Shown here in pieces: positions 4,301 through 39,067 of a stretch of DNA of 40,665 bases. The stretch comes from a virus. Its lineage: Duplodnaviria; Heunggongvirae; Uroviricota; Caudoviricetes. A program made the translations under genes and the position numbers. The notes beneath the pieces are model-generated. The model had not been told where the DNA came from and did no database searches. It saw only the letters and a program-made list of their open reading frames with translations. Numbering within the stretch: the stretch's first letter is position 1; every line of letters starts with the position of its first letter. The stretch is taken from IMG/VR virus record IMGVR_UViG_2687453300_000007. One strand, 5' to 3'.

Positions 4301-4323
4301 AGTTACTGGACAAAGGGGGCGCA

Positions 4324-4790: not shown

Positions 4791-5086
4791 GCACCATCAA
4801 CCACCAGAAGCTACGCGAACTGGCATTTGCCCTGCAACGAATGGCAACACCTCAAAAATTACTGGCATTTCGCGCAATGCTCTCGCCGTCTGCTGCGCTG
4901 GCATTGCTGGATGAGCTGGAGCACGCCAGAACCACGGCTCCTGCCATTCGCCTGACGCTCCATCATGAAATCGCTGATTTCTGCGCGACATTGGAGGTGC
5001 CAGGCGAACCGGAAACGCCGGAAGCAATACAGCAAGAGCTGCTGCAACGTATTGACAAGGTTTTTGATTTTTTTCTGAACCAGTAA
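4787..5086 (+). CDS. Hypothetical early protein (99 aa)
   Basis: Track ORF, translationally coupled to the upstream gene. Confidence 0.5.
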   Translation: MSTINHQKLRELAFALQRMATPQKLLAFRAMLSPSAALALLDELEHARTTAPAIRLTLHHEIADFCATLEVPGEPETPEAIQQELLQRIDKVFDFFLNQ

Positions 5087-9942: not shown

Positions 9943-9946
9943 ACCA

Positions 9947-10261: not shown

Positions 10262-10344
10262 TCTGATAATTGTATGTGAACTAATAAAATACAGACCAAC
10301 ACATCATTCTGGCACCCTTGCTAACAGGGTGCCAATGTTTCAAA

Positions 10345-11187: not shown

Positions 11188-11226
11188 ACTTCCCCCTGTG
11201 TTACTTGTAAATTAAAGGGTAAAACA

Positions 11227-11724
11227 TTATTTGTTTTTCCGTAAAGGATTAGCTTTCCATCTTCTTACTAACCATTCGAATTCTTGATATGTAGTATCCG
11301 AATTAATGCTTTCTCTGATTGCTTTAATTAATGGCTCGGCAATATCATATGTCTCTACAACTGTTGTGTAAGATGTTCTTTTTATCATTTTTTCATCATA
11401 AATACCTTCACGAATACTTACAGCAACTCGCTCGTAAAAATTTAAAATATATTGAAATTTTCGACGCTCGGCCATTTCTTCATCTGTTATTATGCAACCA
11501 TCACAAGGAAAAACATAAGAACGAAATGATTTGCCTGAACGATGCACTTGTTTCAGGGTATGCAATGACTCTATATATTGCATATCTTGCCGACTCTCAA
11601 AAAGAAAGTTGGCCGTTTGAGTTTTTTTTGCGGTACGCACATTGTAGATAATGGTTCCAATGGCAACCAAAACGCCAAGCAGAACAATAGCATTGCTGAT
11701 GATTTGTAGTGTTATTGGGTTCAT
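11227..11724 (-). CDS. Hypothetical single-pass membrane protein (165 aa)
   Basis: N-terminal TM helix (ITLQIISNAIVLLGVLVAIGTIIY) followed by a soluble domain of about 135 aa. Lies 39 bp upstream of the 280-aa gene on the same strand. AT-rich. Confidence 0.6.
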   Translation of the reverse strand: MNPITLQIISNAIVLLGVLVAIGTIIYNVRTAKKTQTANFLFESRQDMQYIESLHTLKQVHRSGKSFRSYVFPCDGCIITDEEMAERRKFQYILNFYERVAVSIREGIYDEKMIKRTSYTTVVETYDIAEPLIKAIRESINSDTTYQEFEWLVRRWKANPLRKNK

Positions 11725-11738
11725 CCTATTTCATCCAT

Positions 11739-11765
11739 AAAAAAGGCGGGGAGCAAATCCCCGCC
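11739..11765 (-). terminator. Intrinsic terminator/attenuator immediately upstream of the 165-aa gene
   Basis: On the minus strand: 8-bp GC stem GGCGGGGA / TCCCCGCC with a 5-nt loop, followed by TTTTTTAT. It ends 14 nt before the ATG at 11724. Confidence 0.6.
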
Positions 11766-11785
11766 TCATTAGAGGTCAACGTAGC

Positions 11786-11821
11786 TTAGAAACCATCAAA
11801 TTCATCATACATTTTTTTCAT
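11786..11821 (-). CDS. Putative 11-codon leader peptide (MKKMYDEFDGF)
   Basis: Minus-strand ATG 11821 preceded by GAGGGGG SD at 5-nt spacing. Stop at 11786..11788, about 20 nt upstream of the terminator stem. Confidence 0.3.
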   Translation of the reverse strand: MKKMYDEFDGF

Positions 11822-11921
11822 ATCAACCCCCTCATAGAAATCATAACCACGTTTTGTGGTTTTTGTGACGTATAAACTACATCAAAGGCAAGCCACGGTC
11901 AAATATATAGGCATGCTTACC

Positions 11922-12020
11922 TGCACAAAAGTGCACAAATTTGCACAATTTTTTTGAACGACTTTTTACCCTTCCGGCCCGCATGGCGGCTGGATCCGTC
12001 AAGGATCCGTGCGTGCACAA
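11922..12020. repeat. Iterated TGCACAA heptamers at 10-bp phasing, plus GGATCCGT direct repeat
   Basis: TGCACAA at 11922, 11932 and 11942 (exact 10-bp period) and again at 12014. GGATCCGT at 11992 and 12003. Located in non-coding DNA between the cargo operon and the orphan gene. Confidence 0.55.
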
Positions 12021-12320
12021 AAAAACGCGCTTTTTCTGCGCGCAGGTGACGGGGGAACAGCCCGCGTTTCAGGGGGTAAATAGCATTCCCTGAACGATGT
12101 CGCAGAGACACAACAGAATGGCCATATTTCTCACGCTGAGCATGAAAAAGGCGTGAGGGCTTTTGATTTGATGGGGTGAAAGGTAAGGCCGTCAAAATCG
12201 CACTGAGGCAGCGAGAACATGCAGTCAACGCGGTGGAATTGCGTAAGAGTCTGACCGTCGATGGTGGCGATAAACTGGAAGGCGTCGTGAAATTATCTGA
12301 TTGATACAGGAGCTGGAGAG

Positions 12321-12347
12321 CCGGGGCATAAATTTTTTATGCCCCGG
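12321..12347. repeat. Near-perfect 27-bp palindrome
   Basis: CCGGGGCATAAATTTTTTATGCCCCGG, with no flanking U-tract on either strand. About 100 bp upstream of the 174-aa gene. Confidence 0.5.
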
Positions 12348-12447
12348 CGAAGCAGCAGACAAGCGAAGCGCGTCAGCGATACGGCACCTTGCCGACCATA
12401 CTTCATAAGTGCAAAATACGAGCAAAGAAATCAATGGAGGCTGTCTT

Positions 12448-12972
12448 ATGGTCATTAATTACAAGCAGTTAAGAGAAAAACGGGAGCAGGTAAAGGAGAG
12501 CTTTCGCCGCAATGAAGATCTGACCCCGCTTGTACGCCTTGCCCAGGGCATTGTTGATGCTTATGAAATCTCGCTGGAGCTGCCATCACAGACCTGGACA
12601 GATAGCGACGGTAATCGCCAGCATTACGTTTCATGCGGACTGGAAGCAGCCGAAGGATTTCGCAGAATGCCTTTATCCCAGATCCCTGCCGCTACCCCCA
12701 AAGCACGGGGCAGCAATGATGAGCGAAAACTGACTTTTAGTATTGAAACGGTGGTTGACGACACACCTGGCGAAGTCGCGTTCGTGCACACTCCTGTTTC
12801 GATCGCAATGTATAACGATGAAATACAGGTTCGCGTTAATAATAATATCGTGCCACTTAAAGAAGGTAATTCACCCTACACCACCGTTTGTGAAGCCATT
12901 CAATATTACGTTCTCTCTGAAATTGATAATCTCAAGCCTGACGGCACCCAGAAAATGGTTCAACTCTGGTAA
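12448..12972 (+). CDS. Hypothetical protein (174 aa) between the cos region and portal gene
   Basis: ATG 12448 with GGAGG SD 7 nt upstream (the track ORF starts at an upstream GTG). Convergent with Q. No family recognised. Confidence 0.5.
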   Translation: MVINYKQLREKREQVKESFRRNEDLTPLVRLAQGIVDAYEISLELPSQTWTDSDGNRQHYVSCGLEAAEGFRRMPLSQIPAATPKARGSNDERKLTFSIETVVDDTPGEVAFVHTPVSIAMYNDEIQVRVNNNIVPLKEGNSPYTTVCEAIQYYVLSEIDNLKPDGTQKMVQLW

Positions 12973-13004: not shown

Positions 13005-14033
13005 ATCAAGAAGAGCATAAGAGTTAAAACGGATCACCTCTTCGCCAAGCCAGTCATTGATGTGCTTCATAGCCTCCATAACGGGCATCAGCTCGTTAAT
13101 TGCGTAAACCCGCGCTGCCTTCTCCACATCGCCAAACGCACTTTTTTCGCCCGGCATCGCCCCCATCAGTTGCGGCGGAACGCGGTGCGCAGCCAGCACA
13201 TCATCACGGGATGCCGCCTTAACATTCATGAATTCATCTTTTGCGGTGATCTGCTGGAACGGCAAAATTTGCACCCCCTCTTTGCCCCCGTTGGGCGCAT
13301 GAATGAGCACGTTTTTAAACGCACCACCACCACGTGCCCCCTGTAGCGTTTCTTTCAGGGAGTCCATGCTTTCGCGGTTTACCTGCGCTGCACCGATGTA
13401 GATGATGCACCCGGCGTGGGATCCGTTGTCGTAGTACAGTTTTCTGAACATGTCCGCCGAATGAGAAAGGCTGGCCGAGAGTAATGCGCCAAGATATTCC
13501 GGCATGCCGTAGATTTCCTGGTTAATATCCGGATTCATCAGGTGGCACACTTTGCCAGGACGAAACTGAAACGCGTCCTTGCCATCCTGCACATACCACC
13601 ATGATTCAAGATCGCTTCCGCGTCGCATGTATTTCGCCAGGGCGTGCCGTAATTTAAGCGGTTCGCCGAGCATATTGCTTCGAAGCTCAAGGAATGCGTT
13701 ACCGAACACAAACCAGTCCAGCGCCAGCGCCGAGAAATCCTGCCGGGAAAGCAGCGGGTGCGGGATGTAGCAACCGAGTAATACATTGCGCTTAAAGTAA
13801 AGCGCAGACTGATGCCAGGACGTTTGCCGGGCTGCTCTTGCCAGACCGTACCAGTCCACCGGGGTTTCATACCACCGCCCGTTATCAGCACAGTACATAT
13901 TGTCCAGCAGGTCATGCCCGGTCAGGCGATAAGGACCATCAAATGTGAATGCACTGAGCGATGATTCTTTCCTGAGCGCATCAGCGAGATCAATGCGTGA
14001 ACTCATGCGCACTTTTTTATTTTTTCTGCTCAT
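12987..14033 (-). CDS. Q: Portal protein (P2 gpQ-like)
   Basis: 348-aa ORF, P2 Q-like in size and position (leftward, adjacent to P, near the cos side). Confidence 0.85.
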   Translation of the reverse strand: MSRKNKKVRMSSRIDLADALRKESSLSAFTFDGPYRLTGHDLLDNMYCADNGRWYETPVDWYGLARAARQTSWHQSALYFKRNVLLGCYIPHPLLSRQDFSALALDWFVFGNAFLELRSNMLGEPLKLRHALAKYMRRGSDLESWWYVQDGKDAFQFRPGKVCHLMNPDINQEIYGMPEYLGALLSASLSHSADMFRKLYYDNGSHAGCIIYIGAAQVNRESMDSLKETLQGARGGGAFKNVLIHAPNGGKEGVQILPFQQITAKDEFMNVKAASRDDVLAAHRVPPQLMGAMPGEKSAFGDVEKAARVYAINELMPVMEAMKHINDWLGEEVIRFNSYALLDEKTAP

Positions 14034-20600: not shown

Positions 20601-20742
20601 CCCACCCACATGGGGAAACCTCGGAATATGGGGCGACCGCCTTCTGGATGCACTGGAAACCTGTAACGCGGATAAACGGGCCATTGCTGAACTGGATAAG
20701 AGAATAGCCGAACTGACACACCAGACGGGAGTAACACAATGA
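20431..20742 (+). CDS. o-spanin (Rz1/LysC-like lipoprotein)
   Basis: Alternate-frame ORF overlapping the i-spanin 3' end. Signal peptide with lipobox LLTGC, then a proline-rich segment. The start may instead be the internal ATG at 20461. Confidence 0.55.
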   Translation: MNSYATILQKMNAPTLCLTLVLLTGCAGTQNAPGPAPSVRLIPQTLTMPVTPPPFPDPPTWGNLGIWGDRLLDALETCNADKRAIAELDKRIAELTHQTGVTQ

Positions 20743-22616
20743 CCAGTAAGAACTTTGCACTGATTACAGCCATGACACAGGCTGAACTGACTCAAAAGGT
20801 GAATGAACATCTTGCGAAAGGGTGGCATCTTCAGGGGGAGACGCGGGTTGCCTACGAACCCGGCACCCCGTGGTATCTAATGCAGGCAATGGTGGCCGAT
20901 GGCACTACAGACATCTCACCTGATTCCCCCCAGCACGGCAGCGTGCCGGAGTGGTATTACGTGGTGGTACTTGCTGGTCAATCCAATGCCATGTCATATG
21001 GTGAGGGAATGCCGCTGCCGGATTCTTACGATGCGCCCCACCCACGCATTAAGCAACTGGCCCGTCGCAACACAGTGACTCCCGGTGGTAAAGCATGCGC
21101 ATTTAACGACATCATTCCGGCAGACCACTGCCTGCATGATGTTCAGGATATGAGCGCACTGAATCACCCGAATGCAGACCTGAGCAAAGGGCAGTATGGC
21201 TGTGTCGGACAGGGCTTGCATATTGCCAAACGCCTGTTGCCTTACATTCCACAGAATGCCGGGATTTTACTGGTTCCATGCTGTCGTGGTGGTTCGGCAT
21301 TCACCCAGGGCGCGGAGGGGACATTCAGCGAGTCCACAGGAGCCAGTCAGGATTCGGCTCGCTGGGGTGTGGGTAAACCTTTATATCAGGACCTGATTTT
21401 GCGCACGAAGGCCGCATTGCAGAAAAACCCAAAAAACATGCTGCTGGCCGTATGCTGGATGCAGGGCGAATTTGACATGAGCGCCGCTACGTACTCACAG
21501 CAACCTCCGCTGTTTACGGCCATGCTGAAACAGTTTCGTGCGGACATTACCGAGTTTAACACGCAGTGTCATGGAGGCAGAGCGGCAAGTGTGCCATGGA
21601 TTTGTGGTGACACGACGTATTACTGGAAAAACACCTACGGCACGCAGTACGACACCATTTACGGGGCGTACAAAAACAGGGAGAGCGACAACGTTTTCTT
21701 TGTGCCGTTCCTGACCGATGGTAGTGGCAACAATACCTCCACCAACGCACCAACGGAAGATCCGGATGCTGCAAGTGAGGGATATTACGGTTCGGCATCC
21801 CGAACGAACAAAAACTGGGTATCATCAAATCGCCAGACGCATTTCAGCTCATGGGCGCGTCGTGGCATTATTCCCGATCGTATGGCAACCGCTATTCTGA
21901 ACGTAGCCGGTCGCACCTTAGCCTTCATCAGTGGTAAGGCACCGGAAATCAAACCCTCGCCCGGCGGCGACACGCCATCGGGGCCGTCTGAAGATGCATC
22001 CGTACGCACAATCTCCCTGTTGCCGACAGCCGGAGATGCTGCTGCGCAGGGCTGGAGCATTAAGAATGGCGGAATTCAGTTGTCAGAGGGTGTATTTAAG
22101 ATCACCAAGCAGAGCAATAAAGCCTGGTCCCTGACGCGCCCGGTGGATGACGCAGTCTCCCTGCTGACACGGGGTGGCAGACTGAGCTGTAAGTTTCGAC
22201 TGTCAGGCGCACTGACCAACAATCAGTTCGGTCTGGGAATTTATCTGTATACCGATGTAGCGTTACCTGACGTCGTGGCGATGACCGGGACTGGTAACCC
22301 GTTCCTGATGTCGTTCTTCACCCAGACCACAGACGGCAAACTGAATCTGATGCATCACAAGAAAGCAGGAAACACAAAGTTGGGCGAGTTCGGGAATTAC
22401 AGTAACGACTGGCAGACGCTGGAGCTGGTGTTCACCGCCGGCAGTGCCACGGTTACTCCGAAACTGAATGGAGTGGCTGGCCCGGCATTCCAGGTCATAA
22501 AAGACAGTCTGACACTGGGGCTGAATGCGCTGACGTTAACTGATATCACTAAAAATGCCGCGTACGGCGTCGATATCGGCAGCCTGGTGCTGGAAATCAA
22601 TAATCCCGCAGCATAA
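20739..22616 (+). CDS. SGNH-family sialate O-acetylesterase-like protein (NanS-p-like) with N-terminal DUF1737-like region
   Basis: 625 aa. GQSNA motif (…VVVLAGQSNAMSYGEG…) typical of 9-O-acetylesterase/SASA-domain enzymes; N-terminus MTSKNFALITAMTQAELTQKVNEHLAKGWHLQGE… as in prophage NanS-p proteins. Inserted between the lysis genes and R. Confidence 0.75.
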   Translation: MTSKNFALITAMTQAELTQKVNEHLAKGWHLQGETRVAYEPGTPWYLMQAMVADGTTDISPDSPQHGSVPEWYYVVVLAGQSNAMSYGEGMPLPDSYDAPHPRIKQLARRNTVTPGGKACAFNDIIPADHCLHDVQDMSALNHPNADLSKGQYGCVGQGLHIAKRLLPYIPQNAGILLVPCCRGGSAFTQGAEGTFSESTGASQDSARWGVGKPLYQDLILRTKAALQKNPKNMLLAVCWMQGEFDMSAATYSQQPPLFTAMLKQFRADITEFNTQCHGGRAASVPWICGDTTYYWKNTYGTQYDTIYGAYKNRESDNVFFVPFLTDGSGNNTSTNAPTEDPDAASEGYYGSASRTNKNWVSSNRQTHFSSWARRGIIPDRMATAILNVAGRTLAFISGKAPEIKPSPGGDTPSGPSEDASVRTISLLPTAGDAAAQGWSIKNGGIQLSEGVFKITKQSNKAWSLTRPVDDAVSLLTRGGRLSCKFRLSGALTNNQFGLGIYLYTDVALPDVVAMTGTGNPFLMSFFTQTTDGKLNLMHHKKAGNTKLGEFGNYSNDWQTLELVFTAGSATVTPKLNGVAGPAFQVIKDSLTLGLNALTLTDITKNAAYGVDIGSLVLEINNPAA

Positions 22617-26085: not shown

Positions 26086-28071
26086 ATGAGTACCACAACA
26101 CGTAAATTTAAAACCGTTATCACCGATACGGGTGCCAAAAAATTAGCTCAGGCAGCCGCGCCAGATGGTAAGCCTGTCCGCCTGACTCATATGGCCGTGG
26201 GCGACGGTGGCGGCACGTTGCCCACACCAGACAGTAAGCAGACCCGTCTGGTGCATGAGGTGTGGCGACATACTGTTAATCGCGTCATCCTGGACGCAAC
26301 ACATCAGAACCGCATTATTGCGGAGCTGGTTATTCCTCCTGAAACGGGCGGATTCTGGATCCGGGAAATTGGTGTATTTGATGAGCACGGCGATTTAATC
26401 GCGGTGGGCAATACTGCCGAAAGTTACAAGCCAGCCGTTGCCGAAGGGTCCGGTCGTGCACAAACATTTCGCACCATTCTGACCGTATCCAGCACTGCCA
26501 CCGTGGTGCTTACCGTGGATAACACCATGGTGATGGCCACAGTGGATTACGTGGATGACAAACTGAAAGAGCATGAACAGTCACGACGTCACCCGGACGC
26601 CTCGCTGACCGCAAAAGGCTTTGTTCAACTCAGTAGCGCCACTAACAGCGTGTCTGAAACGCAGGCTGCAACGCCGAAAGCAGTAAAGGCCGCGTATGAC
26701 CTTGCTAACGGTAAATATACTGCGCAGGATGCCAGCACGACGCGAAAAGGCCTTGTCCAGCTCAGTAGCGCCACCAACAGCACGTCTGAAACGCAGGCTG
26801 CAACGCCGAAAGCAGTAAAGGCCGCGTATGACCTTGCTAACGCAAAATATACCGCTCAGGACGCCACGACGGCACAAAAAGGGATAGTCCAGCTCAGTAG
26901 TGCCACCAACAGCACGTCTGAAACACTGGCCGCGACATCGAAAGCTGTTAAGGCGGTAATGGATGAAACGAACAAGAAAGCGCCCTTAAATAGTCCTGCA
27001 CTGACCGGAACGCCAACAACACCAACTGCGCGACAGGGAACGAATAATACCCAAATCGCAAGCACGGCTTTCGTTATGGCTGCGATTGCCGCCCTTGTAG
27101 ATTCGTCACCTGATGCACTGAACACGCTGAACGAGCTGGCTGCGGCGCTGGGCAACGACCCGAATTTTGCGACCACCATGACTAACGCGCTTGCGGGTAA
27201 GCAACCGAAAGATGCCACCCTGACGGCGCTGGCCGGACTTACTACTGCGGCAGGCAAGTTTCCGTATTTTACGGGGAATGATGTCGCCAGCCTGGCAACC
27301 CTGACAAAAGTCGGGCGGGATATTCTTGCGAAATCGACCGTTGCTGCCGTTATCGAATACCTCGGTTTACGAGAACTCGGCACAAGCGGGGAGAAAATAC
27401 CGTTACTCAGTACAGCGAATACCTGGACCAATCGACAAACATTCAGCGGTGGCCTTTCTGGGGAACTGTCCGGCAATGCCGCTACTGCAACAAAGCTGAA
27501 AACAGCACGAAAAATTGCTGGAGTTGGTTTTGATGGTTCTAGCGATATTTCAATTAGTGCCAAAAATGTCAATGCATTTGCACTCCGACAAACAGGTAAT
27601 ACTGTTAATGGTGATACATCCGTTGGATGGAATTGGGATAGTGGTGCATATAACGCCATGATTGGTGGTGCATCTGCATTAATTCTTCACTTTAATATAA
27701 ATGCTGGTAGCTGTCCTGCCGTACAATTCCGTGTGAATTATAAAAATGGTGGCATTTCCTACAGGTCGGCTCGTGATGGTTATGGGTTTGAATTAGGTTG
27801 GTCAGATTTCTATACCACGACACGAAAACCTTCAGCGGGAGATGTTGGTGCATATACGCGGACAGAATGTAACTCAAGGTTTATTACAGGTATTCGCCTT
27901 GGCGGTCTGTCATCTGTTCAGACATGGAATGGTCCCGGCTGGTCTGACAGGTCAGGTTATGTCGTTACGGGTTCAGTTAACGGAAACCGTGATGAATTAA
28001 TTGATACAACACAGGCAAGGCCAATTCAGTATTGCATTAATGGGACGTGGTATAACGCGGGGAGTATTTAA
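26086..28071 (+). CDS. H: Tail fibre protein (P2 gpH-like), current orientation of the invertible tip
   Basis: 661 aa. The constant N-terminal part ends at the hix-like site near 27362; the C-terminal tip ends …INGTWYNAGSI. Confidence 0.9.
   Translation: MSTTTRKFKTVITDTGAKKLAQAAAPDGKPVRLTHMAVGDGGGTLPTPDSKQTRLVHEVWRHTVNRVILDATHQNRIIAELVIPPETGGFWIREIGVFDEHGDLIAVGNTAESYKPAVAEGSGRAQTFRTILTVSSTATVVLTVDNTMVMATVDYVDDKLKEHEQSRRHPDASLTAKGFVQLSSATNSVSETQAATPKAVKAAYDLANGKYTAQDASTTRKGLVQLSSATNSTSETQAATPKAVKAAYDLANAKYTAQDATTAQKGIVQLSSATNSTSETLAATSKAVKAVMDETNKKAPLNSPALTGTPTTPTARQGTNNTQIASTAFVMAAIAALVDSSPDALNTLNELAAALGNDPNFATTMTNALAGKQPKDATLTALAGLTTAAGKFPYFTGNDVASLATLTKVGRDILAKSTVAAVIEYLGLRELGTSGEKIPLLSTANTWTNRQTFSGGLSGELSGNAATATKLKTARKIAGVGFDGSSDISISAKNVNAFALRQTGNTVNGDTSVGWNWDSGAYNAMIGGASALILHFNINAGSCPAVQFRVNYKNGGISYRSARDGYGFELGWSDFYTTTRKPSAGDVGAYTRTECNSRFITGIRLGGLSSVQTWNGPGWSDRSGYVVTGSVNGNRDELIDTTQARPIQYCINGTWYNAGSI
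26614..27009 (+). repeat. Three tandem 132-bp (44-aa) repeats inside tail fibre H
   Basis: Units begin at 26614, 26746 and 26878 (KG[FLI]VQLSSATNS.SET[QL]AAT[PS]KAVKA… repeats), with near-identical DNA between copies 1 and 2. Confidence 0.8.
27350..27375. promoter_or_regulatory. hix/gix-like inversion crossover site (left)
   Basis: TTATCGAATACC-TC-GGTTTACGAGAA: 12-bp half-sites around a 2-bp core, matching the Hin/Gin recombination-site architecture. 23/26 identical to the reverse complement of the site at 30875..30900. Confidence 0.75.
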
Positions 28072-28073
28072 CG

Positions 28074-28607
28074 ATGATGCACTTAAAAAACATTACTGCT
28101 GGCAACCCTAAAACAAAAGAGCAATACCAGCTAACAAAGCAATTTAACATCAAATGGCTTTATTCAGCTGATGGAAAAAACTGGTATGAGGAACAAAAGA
28201 ATTTCCAGCCAGACACTTTGAAAATGGTCTATGACCATAACGGCGTTATTATTTGTATTGAAAAGGATGTTTCAGCAATTAATCCGGAAGGCGCAAGCGT
28301 CGTTGAATTACCTGATATTACAGCAAATCGCCGGGCTGATATTTCGGGGAAATGGATGTTCAAAGATGGCGTAGTGGTAAAGCGAACTTATACCGAGGAA
28401 GAGCAGAGGCAACAAGCGGAAAATGAAAAGCAGAGCCTGTTGCAACTTGTCAGGGATAAAACTCAGCTATGGGACTCACAGCTACGGCTGGGCATCATTT
28501 CCGACGAGAATAAACAAAAATTAACCGAGTGGATGCTCTATGCGCAGAAAGTCGAATCCACAGACACCTCCAGCCTGCCAGTAACATTTCCCGAACAACC
28601 TGAATGA
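28074..28607 (+). CDS. G: Tail fibre assembly chaperone (P2 gpG-like)
   Basis: 177 aa; N-terminus MMHLKNITAGNPKTKEQYQLTK… shared with the inverted copy at 28636..29163. Confidence 0.85.
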   Translation: MMHLKNITAGNPKTKEQYQLTKQFNIKWLYSADGKNWYEEQKNFQPDTLKMVYDHNGVIICIEKDVSAINPEGASVVELPDITANRRADISGKWMFKDGVVVKRTYTEEEQRQQAENEKQSLLQLVRDKTQLWDSQLRLGIISDENKQKLTEWMLYAQKVESTDTSSLPVTFPEQPE

Positions 28608-28611
28608 GACA

Positions 28612-28640
28612 AGGCCCGATAACGGGCCTTAATTTTTATT
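28612..28640 (+). terminator. Intrinsic terminator between G and G'
   Basis: Stem AAGGCCCG-ATAA-CGGGCCTT followed by AATTTTTATT. Confidence 0.55.
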
Positions 28641-29163
28641 CAGGCTTTTGTGGCCATTCAGGATTTGCCGTATCCACACGGTTGACCAGAACACTGTAGC
28701 GTTCCCATGCTTCCAGTCGTGTGCGTTCCTCGTCTGTTGCCATATTCAGCCTGACAGCGCGTTCCAGCGGCTGGATGACTGATTCAGCTTCGGAAAGCAA
28801 TGCGGCCTTTTGTGATTCGGCCTGTTGTTGCTGTTCGTCAGCCGTATAAATCCGTTTAACCACAGCTCCGTCCTTAAACATCCACTTACCGGAATCATCG
28901 GTCCGACGATTGGCCGTTATATCGGGAACCTCGACGACGCTAAAACCTTCGGGATTAAGCGTGGAGGCATCTCTGGTGATGGCGACAATAATATTATTTT
29001 CATCGTAAACAATCTTTATGGTGTCTGGCTGAAAGTTTTTCACTTCCTCATACCAGTTTTTTCCGTCCTCAGAGTAAAGCCAGATAACTCCGTGTTTCTT
29101 TGTTAACTCATACTGTTCCAGTGTTTTAGCATTACCCGCTTTTATGTTCTTTAAGTGCATCAT
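28636..29163 (-). CDS. Alternative tail fibre assembly chaperone (G')
   Basis: 175 aa on the minus strand with the same conserved N-terminus ([22 protein letters not shown]…) and a divergent C-terminus. Confidence 0.8.
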
Positions 29164-29697
29164 ATTAAACGCTCGCTACATTATACCAGGTGCCATTTAT
29201 ATACTTTTGAACGGGTCTGTAATAAACACCCGCTATATTATCGGCAGAGTTAGACCCTGTATCCTGAACATTAATACCAGACAATACATGACCTGAAGGG
29301 CACTGGAAATTCCATGTTCGCCAGTTGTTCACTCCATAATATTGCTGTGAACCAAGTCGAACATCTTTCACATAACGGGAATCAAAGTTACCGTAATCCG
29401 AGGGATTAACACGCCCCGTAATATTTATGGTCTTATTACTTTGAATGCTTCCGGGAACAAAGCGCATAACATGGACGTAATTAGCATAAACATCCAGATT
29501 ACCATCGCCATTTTGTTTAAAGCCCGTGTCATTATCACCCAATACAATCGAATTACCGCCAAGAGCACTGGATGTTCCGATACCCAGTGCACCATTCAGT
29601 TGACCACCAGATAACGGCAGTGCACCAACATCTCCTGCTGAAGGTTTTCTGGTGGTGGTGTAAAATTCGGACCAGTCGGCTTCAAAACCATAACCAT

Positions 29698-29706
29698 CAC
29701 GGGCTG
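29698..29706. repeat. IS1 target-site duplication (CACGGGCTG); partner copy at 30475..30483
   Basis: Identical 9-bp direct repeats immediately flank the 768-bp element. Confidence 0.9.
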
Positions 29707-29721
29707 GGTAATGACTCCAAC

Positions 29722-30225
29722 TTATTGATAGTGTTTTATGTTCAGATAATGCCCGATGACTTTGTCATGCAGCTCCACCGATTTTGAGAACGACAGCGAC
29801 TTCCGTCCCAGCCGTGCCAGGTGCTGCCTCAGATTCAGGTTATGCCGCTCAATTCGCTGCGTATATCGCTTGCTGATTACGTGCAGCTTTCCCTTCAGGC
29901 GGGATTCATACAGCGGCCAGCCATCCGTCATCCATATCACCACGTCAAAGGGTGACAGCAGGCTCATAAGACGCCCCAGCGTCGCCATAGTGCGTTCACC
30001 GAATACGTGCGCAACAACCGTCTTCCGGAGCCTGTCATACGCGTAAAACAGCCAGCGCTGGCGCGATTTAGCCCCGACATAGCCCCACTGTTCGTCCATT
30101 TCCGCGCAGACGATGACGTCACTGCCCGGCTGTATGCGCGAGGTTACCGACTGCGGCCTGAGTTTTTTAAGTGACGTAAAATCGTGTTGAGGCCAACGCC
30201 CATAATGCGGGCTGTTGCCCGGCAT
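29722..30225 (-). CDS. insB: IS1 transposase InsB
   Basis: 167-aa ORF matching IS1 InsB (…[38 protein letters not shown]…). Confidence 0.9.
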
Positions 30226-30419
30226 CCAACGCCATTCATGGCCATATCAATGATTTTCTGGTGCGTACCGGGTTGAGAAGCGGTGTAAGTGAACTGCAGT
30301 TGCCATGTTTTACGACAGTGAGAGCAGAGATAGCGCTGATGTCCGGCGGTGCTTTTGCCGTTACGCACCACCCCGTCAGTAGCTGAACAGGAGGGACAGC
30401 TGATAGAAACAGAAGCCAC
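30144..30419 (-). CDS. insA: IS1 InsA
   Basis: 91-aa [46 protein letters not shown]…, the zinc-finger/HTH InsA. Confidence 0.9.
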
Positions 30420-30874
30420 TGGAGCACCTCAAAAACACCATCATACACTAAATCAGTAAGTTGGCAGCATCACCCACGGGCTGAACGATAAAAAATACCG
30501 CCATTTTTATAATTAATCCGAAACTGAGCTGCAGGACAACTTCCGTCTCCCATATAAAAATGAATAATTAACGTTGATGCACCACCAATATTTGCGTTAT
30601 AGGCTCCGCTACTCCAGTTCCATCCAACTGCTTTATCATTCGCAACGGTGCTTCCTGTTTTCCCTAAGGCAAACGCACCAACATGACTTGCTTTTAATGT
30701 GATATCGGAGGAACCATCAAAAGCCACATTGCTTATTTTCCTGGCAGTTTTTAATTTTGCAGCTGTAGAAGCATTGCCGGATAGTTCACCAGAAAGGCCA
30801 CCGCTGAATGTTTGTCGATTAGTCCAGGTATTCGCTGTACTGAGTAACGGTATTTTCTCCCCGCTTGTGCCGAG

Positions 30875-30900
30875 TTCTCGTAAACCGAGGTTTTAAATAA
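30875..30900. promoter_or_regulatory. hix/gix-like inversion crossover site (right)
   Basis: TTCTCGTAAACC-GA-GGTTTTAAATAA, in inverted orientation relative to 27350..27375 with a complementary core dinucleotide. About 55 bp upstream of the invertase start. Confidence 0.75.
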
Positions 30901-30954
30901 TGGCCGTTTCTGGCCTGCATGGCATGATTTGCGCTTTTGGACGGGAGATTCAGT

Positions 30955-31554
30955 GTGCTGATTGGCTATGTAAGGGTATCAACAAATGACCAGAATACAG
31001 ACCTGCAACGAAACGCTCTTGTTTGTGCAGGATGTGAACAAATATTTGAAGATAAATTAAGCGGGACAAAGACAGACCGACCGGGATTAAAACGCGCTTT
31101 AAAGCGCCTTCAAAAAGGTGACACGCTGGTTGTCTGGAAACTGGATCGCCTCGGGCGAAGCATGAAACATCTGATTTCTCTCGTCGGGGAACTACGGGAG
31201 CGAGGGATTAATTTTCGCAGTCTGACCGACAGCATAGACACATCTTCTCCAATGGGGCGTTTTTTCTTCCACGTGATGGGTGCCCTGGCTGAAATGGAAC
31301 GTGAATTAATTGTTGAACGTACACTGGCCGGGCTGGCGGCAGCGCGCGCAAGGGGGCGCACAGGCGGACGTCGACCGAAGCTGACAAAAGAACAGCATGA
31401 GCAAATAGCAAGGCTAATCAAAAACGGGCACGACAGAAAACAACTGGCAATAATTTACGGCATTGGCACATCGACGATTTATCGTTATCACCCTGTAGGC
31501 GATATACAGACTGAAGAAACAACCGGGCAGACTCAGGAAAATGAAAACCGCTAA
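30955..31554 (+). CDS. Serine DNA invertase (Gin/Hin/Pin family)
   Basis: GTG 30955 start with GGGAG SD. (M)LIGYVRVSTNDQNTDLQRNAL…LVVWKLDRLGRSM…GINFRSLTDSIDTSSPMGRFFFHVMGALAEMERELIVERT… closely resembles the e14 Pin / Mu Gin family, with a C-terminal HTH. Confidence 0.9.
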   Translation: MLIGYVRVSTNDQNTDLQRNALVCAGCEQIFEDKLSGTKTDRPGLKRALKRLQKGDTLVVWKLDRLGRSMKHLISLVGELRERGINFRSLTDSIDTSSPMGRFFFHVMGALAEMERELIVERTLAGLAAARARGRTGGRRPKLTKEQHEQIARLIKNGHDRKQLAIIYGIGTSTIYRYHPVGDIQTEETTGQTQENENR

Positions 31555-31582: not shown

Positions 31583-32077
31583 TCAGAACAGCCCTTTAAC
31601 TGAACTGGCCGCGCTGTTAAGAGATGATGTCACCTTATCTTTGAAGCCGGACAGCATATCACTGAACGATGAGGATTGCAGGCGCTCCCGCAAATCCTCA
31701 TCACAGCGTTCAAGAGTCAGTGAAAATTCTATCTTTTTCGCCTTACCGTAGCGATCAAACTCGGAGCGGGTCGTATTCGTTTCAGTCAGGACATACATGC
31801 CGTAAATCTGCCCGACGCCATCAATCAAAGGCCAGGGTCGTCCTGTATACGCCTGCGTGGTCAGCAGCGACAGCGACACTTCGCCACCTGTAATTTCAGG
31901 ATAAAGCACACCAGAAAGAACGATGCGATCATCACCTGCACCGATATACTGCCAGCTTGCTGAACGGTTAACGCGTTCATTTTTCACATGCCGCCAGCTT
32001 TTGTTTTGCTGTAACTGCTGATGCGGCAGCGTGCGCAGCTCAAAAACAAACATGCCGTAGATCATCATCATGGCCAT
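31583..32077 (-). CDS. U: Tail protein (P2 gpU-like)
   Basis: 164-aa ORF following the tape measure gene on the minus strand. Confidence 0.75.
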   Translation of the reverse strand: MAMMMIYGMFVFELRTLPHQQLQQNKSWRHVKNERVNRSASWQYIGAGDDRIVLSGVLYPEITGGEVSLSLLTTQAYTGRPWPLIDGVGQIYGMYVLTETNTTRSEFDRYGKAKKIEFSLTLERCDEDLRERLQSSSFSDMLSGFKDKVTSSLNSAASSVKGLF

Positions 32078-32083
32078 GACTCC

Positions 32084-34899
32084 TCAATCTTTATCGTAAA
32101 AACTGCCACGCCCGGCACGGGCGCGCCGTTCCATTTCTGCCCTGACCATTTCACCGACCAGTTTCGCCAGTTCGCGGGGATTCTGCGTAACAACGTTATG
32201 CAGATGAACATGAATTTCACCACCAAATCCGGAGGCAACAGGCTCCCGGTTACGGGAAGTTACAGGAACTGATGCCACTGGAGATCGTATAGCCTCCGCC
32301 ACCGGGCGGGAGCTGGCCGCAACAACAGGGACCAGCGCCGGAGGCAGCGGAGCCGGGACCACGGGTGTGATATTAATTGCGGGGGCAGGCTTACTGACCT
32401 GCGCAATCTTCCGCTCCTGCCACTCCCCACGAACAGCAAGTGCTCGGGGCAGGTTTTTAAAGACAATATCGCCGGGGCCAATGCGTTTTTTCGTCTCCTC
32501 AACCAGCTTACCTGTGTTATCAGCAATTTTGCTGAGTCTGCGCAGCGTACCGGTATTGCTGTCTGTGAGCGGTTTATTGTCTTTGGGGTTATCACCTCCG
32601 GTGCCATTGCCATTTTCCACAGGCTTCGGCGGATTGATTTTCGCCAGGTCCCCCTGAAGCAAGGCAACCTTGTCCTGAAGAATGGCCGCACGCTGTGCGT
32701 CTTCGATTTTCTTGCGCGCCCTTTCCGCTTCATCCGGAAGCACACCAAGCTTTTCAAGTATCCACGCCAGCGTATCCAGCAACATTTTTGCAGGTGTCAG
32801 AACAAGTTGTAACGCACCGCCAAGAACGTTACCGAATATCTCGCCAGCACTGGTACATTTATCCAGAGTTTCCTTGCTGGACTCCATCGGAGACAGCAGC
32901 GATTTAAACCAGTTAAACACCTGGCTGATCCCACTCCCGATTGCGTCAAAAACAGGACCAAACCGTTCAAAGGTTTCGCGCAACGGGGTCAGCCTTTCCA
33001 TAATCCCGCTGAACACCCCGGCAAAAAATGCCCTGATGGGATCCCAGTATTTCCAGATGAGAACGGCAGCTCCGGCAAGCGCAGCCACGATAAGGCCGAC
33101 CGGACTGAACAACGCCCCGATAGCGCCCCCAGTAACGAAACGGAACCCGTCACCATTCCCCATAGTGCTGGCAGGAGTCTGACAGCATTCATTGAACCGG
33201 TCAGGAGGGAAAAGCCAAGACGCAGTTTTGCCAGCGGGCCAGCAAGCACACCAATAGCCAGCGACAACGAGCCAACCGTTGCAGTCATTGCCAGCAACGC
33301 ACCGCCTGCTATCAGTAGCTGGCGCGTCAGTACCGGATGGGCCTGCGCCAGCGAGGTGATTTTTTCAAGCACCCGCGTGAGCCACTGCGTGACAGAACGC
33401 AGCGGACCGTCAACCAGATCACTGATGCGAATACGAAGACCTTCCCATGCGCTGTCGAGATTTTTCAGGTCCCCATCAAGATTATCGGCCATTACTTTTG
33501 CAACGCGATCGGCCTCTCCCCTTGCCCCCTGCAATTCTCTGGTCAGTTTTTGCAGCTCTCCTGAACCAGCCGCCGCAACAAGCGTCTGCAAACCAACGAA
33601 CGCCTCTTCTCCGGCGATGTCCTTGAAGAAGGAAACCTGGTCCACCTGTCCGTATTTTTGTGTCGCCTTATAGAGATCAAGCAGCACATCCTCCATCGGG
33701 CGCATTTTGCCTCTGGCGTCAGCAACTGACACCCCCAGCTCTTTCAGCGCATCAGCCGCAGCTTTTGGCGGTGATGCAAGGCGGGACAGACTTGCGCGCA
33801 TGGCCGTACCAGCATCGCTTCCACGAAGACCATTATTGGCAAGCATCCCGGCCATGGCTGCCGCTTCTTCAAGACTGATACCAAGTTTTGCGGCAACCGG
33901 ACCGGTATACTTCATGGTTTCGCCCAGCGCGCGTAAATCAGTATTGGTCCGGGTGAATGCCGCTGTCAGCGTATCGCCAACCCGGTCCATTTGATCGGCT
34001 GTCAGGTTGAACTGTGTGAGGATATTGGAGCCTATATCAGCCGTCTCGCCGAGTTCGACGCCACCTGCCAGCGCCATATTAAGAACACCGGGCAATGCGG
34101 CCTGAATGGCCTGCGGAGTAAAACCAGCCATTGCCAGAAAGCTCTGCCCACTGGCGGCATCACTCGCAGTAAACTGTGTTTCAGAGCCAAGTTTTAACGC
34201 CTGCTCACGCAGCGCCTTAAACTGCGGGCTGTTTTTGTCGATTCGCGTCAGCGCCTGAACGCGGGACATCTCTTTGCCGAACCCGATCGCGGGCTGCAAA
34301 AAACGCCCGGCAGCATAGCCGCCCGCCGCTGCCGCACCAATTGCCAGCGCACCACCTGTTTTCAGTTTTCCCGCGGTTTCCTGCGCGCGCGAATACCGCT
34401 CACGAGCCTGCGTTACACGCGCAAGCGCCTGCCGTTCGCGTTCAAGCTGGTTGTTGTATTGTTCGGTGCGTCTGATGGCCTGCTGGATGGTGTTATCGCT
34501 GCCTGTCAGGGAAATGCCGTGGCGTTTCAGTTCTCCGCCAAGCTCCCGCATTTTCTGAATTTCCCGTGTGCGCGATTCATTCAGGCGTTCAAGCCGGGTG
34601 CTTAACTGCTGCATCAGCTTTTGTTGTTTTTCGCTGAGCACTGTACCCGTGCGTTGTAACTGATTAAGGGCGTTAAGCTGGCGTCGTGCTTTCACGATAC
34701 CCGCATCCGCTTTACTGACAGCGTCGCGGGCGCGCTCAAATGAACGCGCCTGACGCTCGAGATTTTTGATCGCCCCCTGCGTTCGCTGAATGGAGTCACC
34801 AAACTGCCCCATCAGGCGGCGGGCGTTTTCGGCAGGCCGGGTCAGCCTGTCAACGGCGCTGAAAGCGACCCGGATGTCAAGAGTCTTCATTATCTGCAT
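32084..34899 (-). pseudogene. T: Tail tape measure protein (P2 gpT-like), apparently frameshifted
   Basis: Two overlapping minus-strand ORFs (32989..34926 and 32084..33163) both look like genuine tape-measure sequence and overlap by about 175 bp in frames offset by one nucleotide. A C5/G5 homopolymer lies at 33126..33130. Could be a real inactivating frameshift or a sequencing error. Confidence 0.55.
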
Positions 34900-35113
34900 T
34901 CCCGCTGCGAAGTGCCGCCCGCTCACGCCAGCTAACCACTTCGCCGGGCGTCATCATGAAGATTTCGGCGGGCGACCAGTTGAAAATGGCGGCAATATCC
35001 GCCACCAGATCTTCGATGTGCTCAAAGCACACCAGGGTGATTACGCTGCCGTCTCCTGCACGCTCTTCGCGCCAGAGTCTGGCTCGCTCATAAAATTTAC
35101 AGCCACAGCGCAC
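34877..35113 (-). CDS. E' extension reached by -1 frameshift (E+E' chaperone)
   Basis: ORF in the -1 frame relative to E, overlapping the E 3' end, with a run of seven A (plus-strand T at 35139..35145) in the overlap. Confidence 0.45.
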   Translation of the reverse strand: MRCGCKFYERARLWREERAGDGSVITLVCFEHIEDLVADIAAIFNWSPAEIFMMTPGEVVSWRERAALRSGNADNEDS

Positions 35114-35415
35114 AACTGAATAAAATCGCGTGACGACATTTTTTTAATCATCACTTCATCCAGTCGTGGCGAGGTCACGCGAGGCAACAGCGTGAACATG
35201 GTATCCGCTTTCAGATTCAGCACATCAGACAGCGACAGACCACGCAGGGATCCCGCCTGCTCAATAGCCCCGGTGATCTCCACATATGTGATTTTTTCGG
35301 CACCACGCTCAATTGGCCGGGAAAGTTTTACACCACGTTCGACAGCCATATCCTCACCTGACGTCACATCATCCGCTACGGTGTTATTCCGGGTTTCAGT
35401 ATCGATATCTTTCAT
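35041..35415 (-). CDS. E: Tail assembly chaperone (P2 gpE-like)
   Basis: ORF upstream of the tape measure gene on the same strand; the true start may be an internal ATG. Confidence 0.6.
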   Translation of the reverse strand: MKDIDTETRNNTVADDVTSGEDMAVERGVKLSRPIERGAEKITYVEITGAIEQAGSLRGLSLSDVLNLKADTMFTLLPRVTSPRLDEVMIKKMSSRDFIQLCAVAVNFMSEPDSGAKSVQETAA

Positions 35416-35470
35416 CAGTTGTCTCCTTTTCAGTCAGAGGCGACGCACTGCGCCGCCTGCATATTACTTA

Positions 35471-35983
35471 TCAGCCAAGCCCAAGCGCGGAACGAATGCG
35501 GTCAGGCACAATGTCCTTGCCGTCCTTCCGGTAGATGTGGTTCAACAGGTCGATTTCCCACAGCGGGCGATCGTTAACGCTCAGCTTGTAGTAGGTGTTT
35601 TTGACAGCGTAAGTGTGTGATGTGGCTTCGCCCTGTTTGGCCTCCCCCATATCAATTTCCGTCACACGCCCGCGCATCTCGATTTCATACAGATCGCTTT
35701 CTGCATCGGTGTAATATTCACCCGCAAAACGCAGCAGCGTGCCGTCAATCGTGCCGCCATACTTAAGGAACAGTGCACGAACAGCTCCCCCCATGACAAA
35801 GCTCGCATCAAGCGCGGAGTCGTCCAGACCGAGATCAATACTTACTGCTCCCATCATGCCACCACCACGATAGCTGTCGGTTTTGCGCGTCAGTTTGGGC
35901 GGCGTGACGGATGTCACTTTACCCACTTCGTTTTCACCATCCACAAACAACGTAAAAAAGCGAAGATGTTTTGGTACAGCCAT
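35471..35983 (-). CDS. FII: Tail tube protein (P2 gpFII-like)
   Basis: 170 aa, directly downstream of the sheath gene. Confidence 0.85.
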   Translation of the reverse strand: MAVPKHLRFFTLFVDGENEVGKVTSVTPPKLTRKTDSYRGGGMMGAVSIDLGLDDSALDASFVMGGAVRALFLKYGGTIDGTLLRFAGEYYTDAESDLYEIEMRGRVTEIDMGEAKQGEATSHTYAVKNTYYKLSVNDRPLWEIDLLNHIYRKDGKDIVPDRIRSALGLG

Positions 35984-37167
35984 CAGGCACCTCCCAGCAC
36001 CGCAAATGCGGGACCAAAGAATTCATCAGTAAACGTCTGGTAAAGCTCCATGTCTTCCAGCGGGGGAACGGGCGTATATTTGTAGCGAATACGCACACGC
36101 CCCTGACGTAAATCCGTGGTGCCGTTATCCACCACGTCATACCAGCACTCCGCGCCAATCAGTTTCCCGGCAGTAACCAGCGAATCCAATTTTGCCCTGA
36201 TGGCACTGATAACATCCTTCACGTTCGCAGGCGTCAGTGGACTGTCGATGGTTTCAAACTGCGCTTCCGCAATTGAATCAGCCAGCACCTGTGCGGTTCG
36301 GGTATACACCTCAAAGATGTAGGCGTTCGTTTCCGGTGTGCGGTTGCCCCAGAAGCGGAACCCGTTACGACGAATAATGGTCGTGATTTCTTTGTTGTTG
36401 AGGCTGTTGGCATCACTGTCTTCGGCCTGTAACGACCAGAACACATGCCTCGACATCCCCAGCACATTTTTAACCGGAACGTTGGACAGCGATTTGTGCC
36501 AGCCCTGCTCATGGTCAATGTACGCACGAAGGCCGCACGCATAAGCAGGCGCGGGGAACGTTTCGTTTTTGCCACTTTTCGGGTTGTAGGCGATGAAGTC
36601 AGGCCATAAGAGCATCACCTCACGTTCGTTGAATTTCTGGCGGTAGGTAATCGCCTCAGCCATCGTGTTACAACCATGACATGTGGCATACACAAACGCG
36701 CGCAGTTTACCCGCAATCACGCACAGGGATTTTGTCACCGCCTCCGTGTCCAGCTCCGGCGCGGCCAGAATACGCGGACGGTATCCGATGCTTTCATCCT
36801 GCTCTGCAACAAGCAGCGCATACATCCCCGTATAGCTGCCGTCAGATTCAGAACCACCGATAACCAGTTGATCCTGCGTCCTACCGCCTTCTTCTTTGTG
36901 TTCAGCCACGCGAACGACGATCACTTTTGTGCTCACCTGGTCTGCGATAGCCTTAAGCGCACGATAAAGCGTCCCCGTAGTCCCGCATTTTCCCAGCACG
37001 TCATTGACGCGGGTCAGCAGTGTGGGCTTGTTCAGCGGGAACAGCTCCGCATCCGCATCATCCGCCGTTGCCACGATACCGATAACGCTGGAATCAACAT
37101 CATTAATCGCTGTTACCAGGTCGGTACTTTCCGTGACACGGGCACCATGAAAACGAGTTTCACTCAT
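35983..37167 (-). CDS. FI: Tail sheath protein (P2 gpFI-like)
   Basis: 394 aa. Motifs …DADAELFPLNKP…, …FRFWGNRT…, …YKYTPVPPLE… parallel P2 FI. Confidence 0.9.
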   Translation of the reverse strand: MSETRFHGARVTESTDLVTAINDVDSSVIGIVATADDADAELFPLNKPTLLTRVNDVLGKCGTTGTLYRALKAIADQVSTKVIVVRVAEHKEEGGRTQDQLVIGGSESDGSYTGMYALLVAEQDESIGYRPRILAAPELDTEAVTKSLCVIAGKLRAFVYATCHGCNTMAEAITYRQKFNEREVMLLWPDFIAYNPKSGKNETFPAPAYACGLRAYIDHEQGWHKSLSNVPVKNVLGMSRHVFWSLQAEDSDANSLNNKEITTIIRRNGFRFWGNRTPETNAYIFEVYTRTAQVLADSIAEAQFETIDSPLTPANVKDVISAIRAKLDSLVTAGKLIGAECWYDVVDNGTTDLRQGRVRIRYKYTPVPPLEDMELYQTFTDEFFGPAFAVLGGA

Positions 37168-37324
37168 AGCTTCAGCCCCTTGTATCCGTTAAATGATTCG
37201 GCAACAATCATCACCCACCACGCGCGTAATCTCACCCCTGCGCCGTTCTCCCGCCACGGCGACAACAAAAAGCAGTAACCCCCTCCGCACGCACATGCGA
37301 CCATGCCGCACAGGGAGGGAGCAG

Positions 37325-38434
37325 ATGACCGACACCACCATGCAATTGCTCAGTCAGGGCACAGACCCCGTGAAAATGCCGGATTTTGATATTCTCGCGG
37401 AGGGTAAAACGCTGTCAGGCGTGGCAGAGCGCCTGATGAGCCTGTCACTGACCGACAACCGGGGATTTGAGGCGGACCAGCTCACCATCACGCTGGATGA
37501 TGCGGATGGTCAGTTGCAGCTACCGCCACGGGGCGCGCGCCTGACGGTTCTCATTGGCTGGAAAGGAGAACCGCTGACAGAAAAAGGCACTTACATTGTT
37601 GATGAAATCGCTCACGAAGGACCGCCGGACAGGCTGACTGTTTCAGCCAGAAGCGCAGATTTTCGGGATGAATTTAACGTTAAACGTGAGGTGTCCTGGC
37701 ATGATGTGACCGTTGAGCGTGTGGTATCCGCCATCGCTCATCGGTATGGTCTGAAACCGCAAATCAGCGAAATGCTGATGGATATCGAAATCGACCACGC
37801 CGACCAGACCGAAGAAAGCGACATGTCCTTCCTTACGCGCATGGCGGAAATGCTGGGCGCAATCACCACGGTAAAAAGCGGTAATCTGTTATTCATCATG
37901 CCCGGCGGTGGCGTGAACGCACAGGGCCAGCCGTTGCCATCGTTTGCCATCACACGCAGCAGCGGCGATCGCCATCAGTTCCGCATTGCTGACCGCGAAG
38001 CGTATACGGGGGTACGCGCTTACTGGCTTGATCTTAATTACGGGAAAAAGAAAAAAGTCAGCGTGAAACGCCGTAAACCGCCAAAACCCAAAAAGGAGAA
38101 AAGCAGCAGCCGCGAAGGTGATTATATGGAAGGCGCGGAAGGCAATGTGTTTGTGTTACGCAAGACTTATCAGAACGAGCAGGCAGCAAGACGCGCAGCG
38201 GCGGCAAAGTGGCAGCAACTACAACGCGGAGCCGCATCATTCTCCATCACGCTGGCGCGTGGACGTGCAGAACTCTACCCCGAAATGCATGGCACGGTAA
38301 CAGGATTTAAAAGCGAGATTGATAATCAGGACTGGATCATTGCAAAAGCCGAGCACACCATTGATAACAGCGGTTTTACCACGCAGCTTGAGCTTGAGGC
38401 AAAAATCCCGGAATGGATAGCGGAAACAGAGTGA
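37325..38434 (+). CDS. D: Tail protein / late control protein D (P2 gpD-like)
   Basis: Start set at ATG 37325 after GGGAGGGAG SD (the track ORF starts further upstream). About 370 aa. Confidence 0.8.
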   Translation: MTDTTMQLLSQGTDPVKMPDFDILAEGKTLSGVAERLMSLSLTDNRGFEADQLTITLDDADGQLQLPPRGARLTVLIGWKGEPLTEKGTYIVDEIAHEGPPDRLTVSARSADFRDEFNVKREVSWHDVTVERVVSAIAHRYGLKPQISEMLMDIEIDHADQTEESDMSFLTRMAEMLGAITTVKSGNLLFIMPGGGVNAQGQPLPSFAITRSSGDRHQFRIADREAYTGVRAYWLDLNYGKKKKVSVKRRKPPKPKKEKSSSREGDYMEGAEGNVFVLRKTYQNEQAARRAAAAKWQQLQRGAASFSITLARGRAELYPEMHGTVTGFKSEIDNQDWIIAKAEHTIDNSGFTTQLELEAKIPEWIAETE

Positions 38435-38474
38435 GCAACTTAGAATAGGCAGCACCACGTTAAGGGAGGTCGCT

Positions 38475-38735
38475 ATGTTCCGTTGTCCGCTTTGTGGCGC
38501 ATCTGCCCGTATCCGCACCAGTCGTCCGGAAAATGATTCAAACACCGTGCGGCAAAAGTATTACCAGTGTAACAATCTGGAATGCGGCGTATGCTTCTCA
38601 ACACTGGAAGCTTTCCATAAATTCACATCAAAACACGCCTCCGGCGTTCACTCTTCAGAAGGTATCCCGTGGCATGATCTGCCAGCTTCACACAGGGGAA
38701 ACAATCAGATGAGTTTGCCTTTATCTCAGAATTAA
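38475..38735 (+). CDS. ogr: Late gene activator, Ogr/Delta zinc-finger family
   Basis: MFRCPLCGASARIRTSR…YYQCNNLECGVCF gives C-x2-C-x22-C-x4-C, as in P2 Ogr (MFHCPLC…). Confidence 0.85.
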   Translation: MFRCPLCGASARIRTSRPENDSNTVRQKYYQCNNLECGVCFSTLEAFHKFTSKHASGVHSSEGIPWHDLPASHRGNNQMSLPLSQN

Positions 38736-38823: not shown

Positions 38824-39009
38824 ATGTGGAAAGGCCCCGAGTCAACTTTAACGTTAACCCGAGGCCCTAACCATCTACCCTCAGCAAGTGATAGGTTAGC
38901 GCCTCCCCGAAAAAGGAGCAAGCGCTATGTCGCAAAAATCGCTTACGGCCATCACATTCTGCGTGACGGCAATCCTCATCATCTGGATGCTGCACGGTTC
39001 GCTGTGTGA
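38824..39009 (+). CDS. Possible mok-like overlapping reading frame
   Basis: 61-aa ORF starting upstream of and overlapping the hok-like ORF in another frame, as in hok/mok/sok loci. Composition is weakly protein-like. Confidence 0.25.
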   Translation: MWKGPESTLTLTRGPNHLPSASDRLAPPRKRSKRYVAKIAYGHHILRDGNPHHLDAARFAV

Positions 39010-39067
39010 AATACGGATGAGTTTCTGGGGAGCGGAGTTTGCGGCGTTCTTACAGTGTAAGCAGTAA
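38927..39067 (+). CDS. Hok/Gef-family type I toxin (46 aa), putative
   Basis: ATG 38927 with AAGGAG SD 8 nt upstream. MSQKSLTAITFCVTAILIIWMLHGSLCEIRMSFWGAEFAAFLQCKQ: N-terminal TM helix followed by the SLCE(I/L) … AAF(L) pattern seen in Hok/Gef toxins. Below the ORF-track size cutoff. Confidence 0.55.
   Translation: MSQKSLTAITFCVTAILIIWMLHGSLCEIRMSFWGAEFAAFLQCKQ

Follow-up and report, generated by a model that had tools for sequence, protein, structure and literature searches.

A probably recent IS1 insertion interrupts the alternative tail-fibre cassette of the Phi1 invertible segment in Escherichia coli JJ1887

Among the closest described relatives of the locus analysed in this work are the G segment of phage Mu and the C segment of phage P1, which combine a Gin or Cin invertase, inverted 26-bp gix-like sites located in the fibre gene and a mirror pair of tip-plus-chaperone cassettes (S-U versus S'-U'). 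Members of the IS1 family measure about 768 bp, and their terminal inverted repeats, each about 23 bp long, are imperfect; IS1 is classically strongly polar. In the classical polar insertions of the gal and lac operons, a gene is interrupted by a 768-bp element flanked by a 9-bp direct duplication, and expression of the downstream gene is also affected. An invertible fibre segment has already been published in prophage Phi1 of the E. coli ST131 strain EC958, in which about 50% of the PacBio reads were found in each orientation (Forde et al. 2014, PMC4134206).

The locus of E. coli JJ1887 has the same Gin-like invertase, inverted sites and mirrored cassettes as the Mu and P1 segments. The U/U' region of Mu, D108 and P1/P7 is about 89-90% identical at the DNA level to the JJ1887 segment, and the end of the expressed JJ1887 tip is identical to Mu S'. 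Unlike Mu and P1, the carrier is a P2-like (Xuanwuvirus/P88-like) prophage, one of the cassettes is broken by IS1, and the second tip is similar to P2 gpH (about 82% identity) instead of following Mu S throughout. With the classical IS1 mutations the locus shares the 768-bp element, the 9-bp duplication and the interruption of a gene, and polarity on the downstream gene is likewise expected; in contrast to the classical cases, the element has struck the silent cassette of a phage gene subject to phase variation, and a phenotype is therefore expected in one DNA orientation but not in the other. The explanation considered highly probable is that a recent, strain-private IS1 insertion breaks the H' cassette of the Phi1 invertible fibre segment. 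The event is one of ordinary prophage decay, another instance of a well-known event in an already published switch.

The window, that is, the whole stretch of 40,665 bp that was analysed, contains a complete P2-like prophage extending from the integrase gene to ogr and adjoining serS, with P2-type structural, lysis, replication, cox/integrase and ogr genes all present. The 12.6 kb around the IS1 site match E. coli JJ1887 (ST131 H30Rx; NZ_CP014316.1) over their whole length at 100% identity. The prophage belongs to the P88/Xuanwuvirus group (Peduoviridae), its identity to P88, P884B11 and 503458 being 93-95%. It is the Phi1 prophage already described in strain EC958 (Forde et al. 2014, PMC4134206). 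EC958 and JJ1887 share the protein accessions of the fibre, the invertase and both chaperones, the two 26-bp crossover sites are letter-for-letter identical (Table 3 in PMC4134206), and the segment occupies the same chromosomal place with respect to the tail genes. The segment of EC958 Phi1 was published as 2,773 bp (PMC4134206), and that of JJ1887 measures 3,551 bp with IS1 and 2,774 bp when the IS1 and one repeat copy are subtracted. Two differences separate JJ1887 from its relatives: the alternative tip is unbroken in EC958, JJ1886, AR_0058 and hundreds more genomes, IS1 being found there only in JJ1887, and the tape-measure gene is intact in EC958, JJ1886 and AR_0058 but frameshifted in JJ1887.

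Exactly two crossover sites, both centred on TC, were found in the window, where none is expected by chance. Each of them is enclosed by one of the inverted-repeat arms (left, 27346-27515; right, 30735-30904), and since there are only two sites the segment has two states. The coordinates of these sites and of the other features of the locus are given in Table 1. The layout is that of the Din family, with the constant N-terminal part of the fibre outside the segment and two C-terminal tips with their chaperones mirrored inside. In the tail-fibre gene H, the constant part gives way at about codon 425 to the variable tip Hv, and the last 67 aa of the protein match the S' part of PDB 8ju3 without a difference (Mu S'-type tip). 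In the assembled orientation this gene is intact and is followed by its own chaperone gene. Three tandem 132-bp (44-aa) Phage_fiber_2 repeats, 75-88% identical to one another, are located at 26595-26954 in the constant part of the fibre.

Table 1. Positions of the features of the invertible fibre segment, the IS1 element and the tape-measure lesion in the window.
Feature	Position	Strand	Description
Tail-fibre gene H, as assembled	26086..28071	+	661 aa; Phage_tail_fib N-terminal domain and Phage_fiber_2 repeats; WP_021538277.1
Left 26-bp crossover site	27350..27375	+	TTATCGAATACC-TC-GGTTTACGAGAA (= TTATCGAATACCTCGGTTTACGAGAA); equals EC958 Phi1_5prime
Chaperone gene tfa	28074..28607	+	Cognate to the intact tip; Caudo_TAP, 3.6e-37
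Alternative chaperone gene tfa'	28636..29163	-	Intact; Caudo_TAP, 4.2e-38; WP_001554335.1, shared with EC958
Distal H' fragment	29165..29706	-	Encodes residues 564-740 of the flipped fibre, including the divergent P2-H-like / Mu-S-like receptor-binding end; also holds the left repeat copy; RefSeq pseudogene AX202_RS04625
Left target-site duplication copy	29698..29706	.	CACGGGCTG; single in the empty site of AR_0058
IS1 (IS1A type)	29707..30474	-	768 bp; ends, domains, RefSeq, 768/768 plasmid match
Right target-site duplication copy	30475..30483	.	CACGGGCTG; repeat search
Proximal H' fragment	30475..30874	-	Ends in YRSAR, then G and TGA from the IS1 end; RefSeq pseudogene AX202_RS27250
Right 26-bp crossover site	30875..30900	-	TTATTTAAAACC-TC-GGTTTACGAGAA (= TTATTTAAAACCTCGGTTTACGAGAA); equals EC958 Phi1_3prime
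Gin-type serine DNA invertase gene	30955..31554	+	Intact; Resolvase and HTH_7; WP_000905061.1
1-bp deletion in a G6 run	33126..33130	-	Splits the tape-measure gene (32084-34926, -); this assembly only

The invertase is nearly identical to Mu Gin in the catalytic domain (E=3e-100 to the structures 4m6f and 3uj3), and its accession is common to JJ1886, AR_0058 and EC958. A Fis-dependent recombinational enhancer is expected in the 5' part of the invertase gene, given the near-identity of its N-terminal coding region to gin. At least 20 genomes match a synthetic flipped junction over its entire length (100% coverage) at 100% identity. Matches spanning the junction were obtained for the flipped type in 325 genomes and for the unflipped type in 327, and ST131 genomes with either orientation are found at 100% identity. 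The switch is evidently active in this prophage lineage, and JJ1887 itself presumably still inverts. H' had been taken in the initial annotation, made from the DNA alone, as the alternative tip of a two-state segment, and this assignment is upheld by the presence of two sites only, the Gin-like invertase and the occurrence of both orientations in genomes.

The two copies of CACGGGCTG that flank the element are the only ones on the + strand of the 40.7-kb window, and the match between both flanks ends exactly at 9 bp on either side; a 9/9 match at one fixed pair of positions would arise by chance with a probability of about 4e-6. The span between them is exactly 768 bp and its ends are the imperfect terminal inverted repeats GGTAATGACTCCAACTTATTGAT and GGTGATGCTGCCAACTTACTGAT, in agreement with the length and ends of the IS1A type. 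The 9-bp duplication around the element, which is reduced to one copy in the unoccupied site, is also that of IS1. Two proteins are encoded on the - strand, InsA (30144-30419, 91 aa), with the Pfam domains Zn_ribbon_InsA and HTH_Tnp_IS1, and InsB (29722-30225, 167 aa), with DDE_Tnp_IS1 at 2e-78. The slippery A6C motif TTAAAAAAC is located at 30162-30168 on the same strand, and a -1 shift leads to a 232-aa InsAB' fusion. The element is labelled in RefSeq as 'IS1A family transposase, programmed frameshift' (WP_103215986.1) and is placed there between two partial tail-fibre pseudogenes. The transposase is co-directional with H'. This IS1 copy looks functional, and it is probably active in transposition, as suggested by its intact ORFs and ends and its identity to a plasmid copy. 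A complete IS1 with intact InsA/InsB and frameshift motif, flanked by identical 9-bp repeats, had been proposed initially; the ends, the domains and the A6C fusion bear out the first part, and the presence of CACGGGCTG on both sides the second. When IS1 and one repeat were deleted in silico, the open frame that had been quoted (...YRSARDGYGFEADWSEFYTTTRKPSAGDVGA...) was recovered and extended to the natural stop.

Some 400 bp separate the IS1, which is located well within the segment, from the right crossover site, and neither the sites nor the invertase gene are touched. Inversion carried out in silico at the TC centres joins the constant part of about 425 codons to H'. The resulting flipped fibre has 740 aa without IS1 and 564 aa with it, the latter consisting of 563 native residues plus a Gly, followed by a TGA derived from IS1. 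The break point (YRSAR|DGYGFE) lies in a shaft region common to both tips, upstream of all the divergent sequence, and the 177 aa that are lost comprise the stretch that matches the C terminus of Mu S (5yvq) and, at about 82% identity, P2 gpH. After inversion, tfa' would be located downstream of IS1. The initial statement that half of the inversion states would produce a truncated fibre is thus true as a count of states (one of two, 564 versus 740 aa in silico). The insertion was also said to inactivate one of the two tips specifically; H' is broken and the 661-aa fibre with the other tip is intact, the functional loss being predicted.

According to the favoured explanation, IS1 would have transposed into H' of the Gin-type segment of JJ1887 Phi1, duplicating the 9-bp CACGGGCTG, with the identical copy on plasmid pJJ1887-5 as a possible donor. 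The switch would have remained untouched, with the invertase and both 26-bp crossover sites intact. The assembled orientation would give the normal 661-aa fibre with its Mu S'-type tip, and inversion would fuse the constant part to H', in which translation would end one codon into IS1, at 564 of the 740 aa, yielding a truncated product without the whole divergent receptor-binding end. In the flipped state, a polar IS1 would in addition be placed upstream of the cognate tfa'. Receptor binding and adsorption are likely to be lost in this state and IS1 is probably polar on tfa' after inversion; because of the truncated fibre and this polarity, particles produced in the flipped orientation should be fibre-defective.

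Comparison with IS1-free homologous prophages, which had been suggested as a check, revealed the empty site in AR_0058, JJ1886, EC958 and many other genomes. In AR_0058, the sequence of which was read directly, the two flanks adjoin each other across one copy of CACGGGCTG, IS1 being absent, and the alternative tip is an unbroken 894-bp cassette in this strain as well as in JJ1886 and EC958. A reconstructed 500-bp empty-site query was found in 551 complete E. coli genomes with a coverage of at least 80%, and 374 of them matched it with at least 99% identity. The genomes with an uninterrupted site include more distant relatives (89-99% identity) as well as P2-like phages. When the IS1 junctions of each side were used as queries, they were contiguous only in JJ1887 among 5,426 complete genomes.

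Strain JJ1886 has been described as nearly identical to JJ1887, both isolates having been obtained in 2007 from two sisters of one household. Since JJ1886 is nearly identical and yet lacks the IS1, the insertion postdates the divergence of the two strains. The IS1 of the prophage is identical in 768 of 768 positions to the copy located at 42820-43587 of plasmid pJJ1887-5, which may be the donor. This plasmid is a large F-type plasmid that goes without mention among those shared with JJ1886 in the genome paper. The insertion, which had been regarded as recent, is to all appearances recent and private to JJ1887, as indicated by a junction present only in this strain among the 5,426 genomes, its absence from JJ1886 and the identical plasmid copy. 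It could have occurred in laboratory culture instead of in the patient.

An adaptive origin has also been considered, in which either the loss of the P2-H-like tip or an IS1-driven transcription of distal H' and tfa' would have been selected in the household lineage. A second, apparently independent lesion in the same module of the nearly identical strain JJ1886 speaks for it: in tfa' of JJ1886 (about 13119-13134 of the stretch compared; about 28770-28775 in the window), GAAGCT is replaced by AGGAACAGTTCTCAAC, a net change of +10 bp that causes a frameshift, and this private indel was found in no other complete genome. It may be a coincidence, an assembly error produced by reads of mixed orientation or a weak hint of parallel inactivation. 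The sample consists, however, of two strains, and the JJ1886 indel may belong to a kind of artefact described in PMC4134206, a consensus error arising where reads of both orientations are mixed. The late genes are silent in lysogens, so that no selective benefit is evident, and the remaining ST131 strains keep the module intact. Selection for inactivation of the alternative module in the JJ1886/JJ1887 lineage, or an orientation-dependent, phase-variable transcription caused by IS1, is accordingly considered very improbable. Either of them, if true, would make the insertion more than neutral prophage decay.

A slightly smaller chance is given to an assembly artefact, that is, an IS1 misplaced through repeat collapse or a chimeric read, with an empty site in the real JJ1887 chromosome. 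The insertion is present in only one genome, invertible regions are a known source of confusion in genome assembly (Forde et al. 2014, PMC4134206), and the JJ1887 assembly also carries the homopolymer frameshift in the tape-measure gene (Table 1), which is unbroken in AR_0058, JJ1886 and EC958. A perfect 9-bp duplication of a sequence that is single-copy in the relatives is, nevertheless, the signature of IS1 transposition and would not be created by a misjoin. In addition, the mean PacBio read was about 10.9 kb at 118x, far above the 768 bp of the element, and the assembly was subjected to Illumina correction and a structural check with Delly. The tape-measure deletion itself may be genuine and inactivate the gene, or it could equally have arisen as a homopolymer error of PacBio sequencing. 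If it is real, no functional tails would be formed in either fibre state, and it may then make the state of the fibre irrelevant.

Precise excision of IS1 is rare. That the element is ancestral and was precisely excised from all the other Phi1-bearing genomes is conceivable in principle, nothing specific speaking for it, and it is the least credible explanation in view of this rarity, of the 551 uninterrupted genomes, including relatives at 89-99% identity and P2-like phages, versus one with IS1, and of the zero divergence from the plasmid copy of the same cell.

A recent transposition of IS1 into H' of JJ1887 has a small broader weight, as a clean and datable example of the erosion of prophages by IS elements. 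Its dating is provided by a sister isolate without the insertion and by an identical candidate donor on a co-resident plasmid. It also exemplifies a lesion whose phenotype a DNA switch hides in one of its states, and it serves as a strain-specific marker to tell JJ1887 from JJ1886. For annotators, 'partial tail fiber' pseudogenes adjacent to an invertase may be either normal silent cassettes, as in the relatives, or truly broken ones, as in JJ1887.

Other IS events are found in this prophage family, at sites and with elements that differ from those of JJ1887. Strain Ec-23 was considered as a second case of the same insertion and discarded, since its CACGGGCTG site is empty and an independent IS1 is located about 215 bp away. 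In Ec-23 (3501-5086) this IS1 abuts a homologous alternative tip; the prophage there, located near trpA, is a degraded remnant in which the invertase is truncated. The IS100 of Escherichia phage 503458 (Xuanwuvirus) was likewise rejected as an insertion into an invertible segment; it is located at 9374-12171 and breaks the tail-sheath gene, so that the deposited 'phage' record corresponds to a defective prophage.

Several accessory genes were observed in the window. A ParM and a partition protein are encoded at 8983-10261. At 10345-12972, three genes whose products are of unknown function (DUF4760 and others) separate the replication genes from the portal gene, and at 20739-22616 a gene for a 625-aa DUF6645 protein separates the lysis genes from the tail genes. 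A hok/gef toxin gene at 38927-39067 adjoins serS. A PADLOC scan of the accessory genes of the window revealed no convincing defence system, with a weak Csx27-like match (1e-5).

The tail genes FI-FII-E-E'-T-U (31583-37167, -) are located on the strand opposite to gpD/ogr (37193-38735) and the H operon, unlike in P2. An aberrant large inversion of this block, linked to the invertase, was considered and rejected, as the block is colinear in P88, P884B11, 503458 and Shae_phiSM; this arrangement, colinear across the P88-group phages, is therefore a feature of the genus. The gpD-like ORF at 37193-38434 encodes 413 aa, with a match to the tail-protein profile from about residue 43, and the gpD call in RefSeq has just 266 aa, with a start at 37634 that was probably placed too far downstream.
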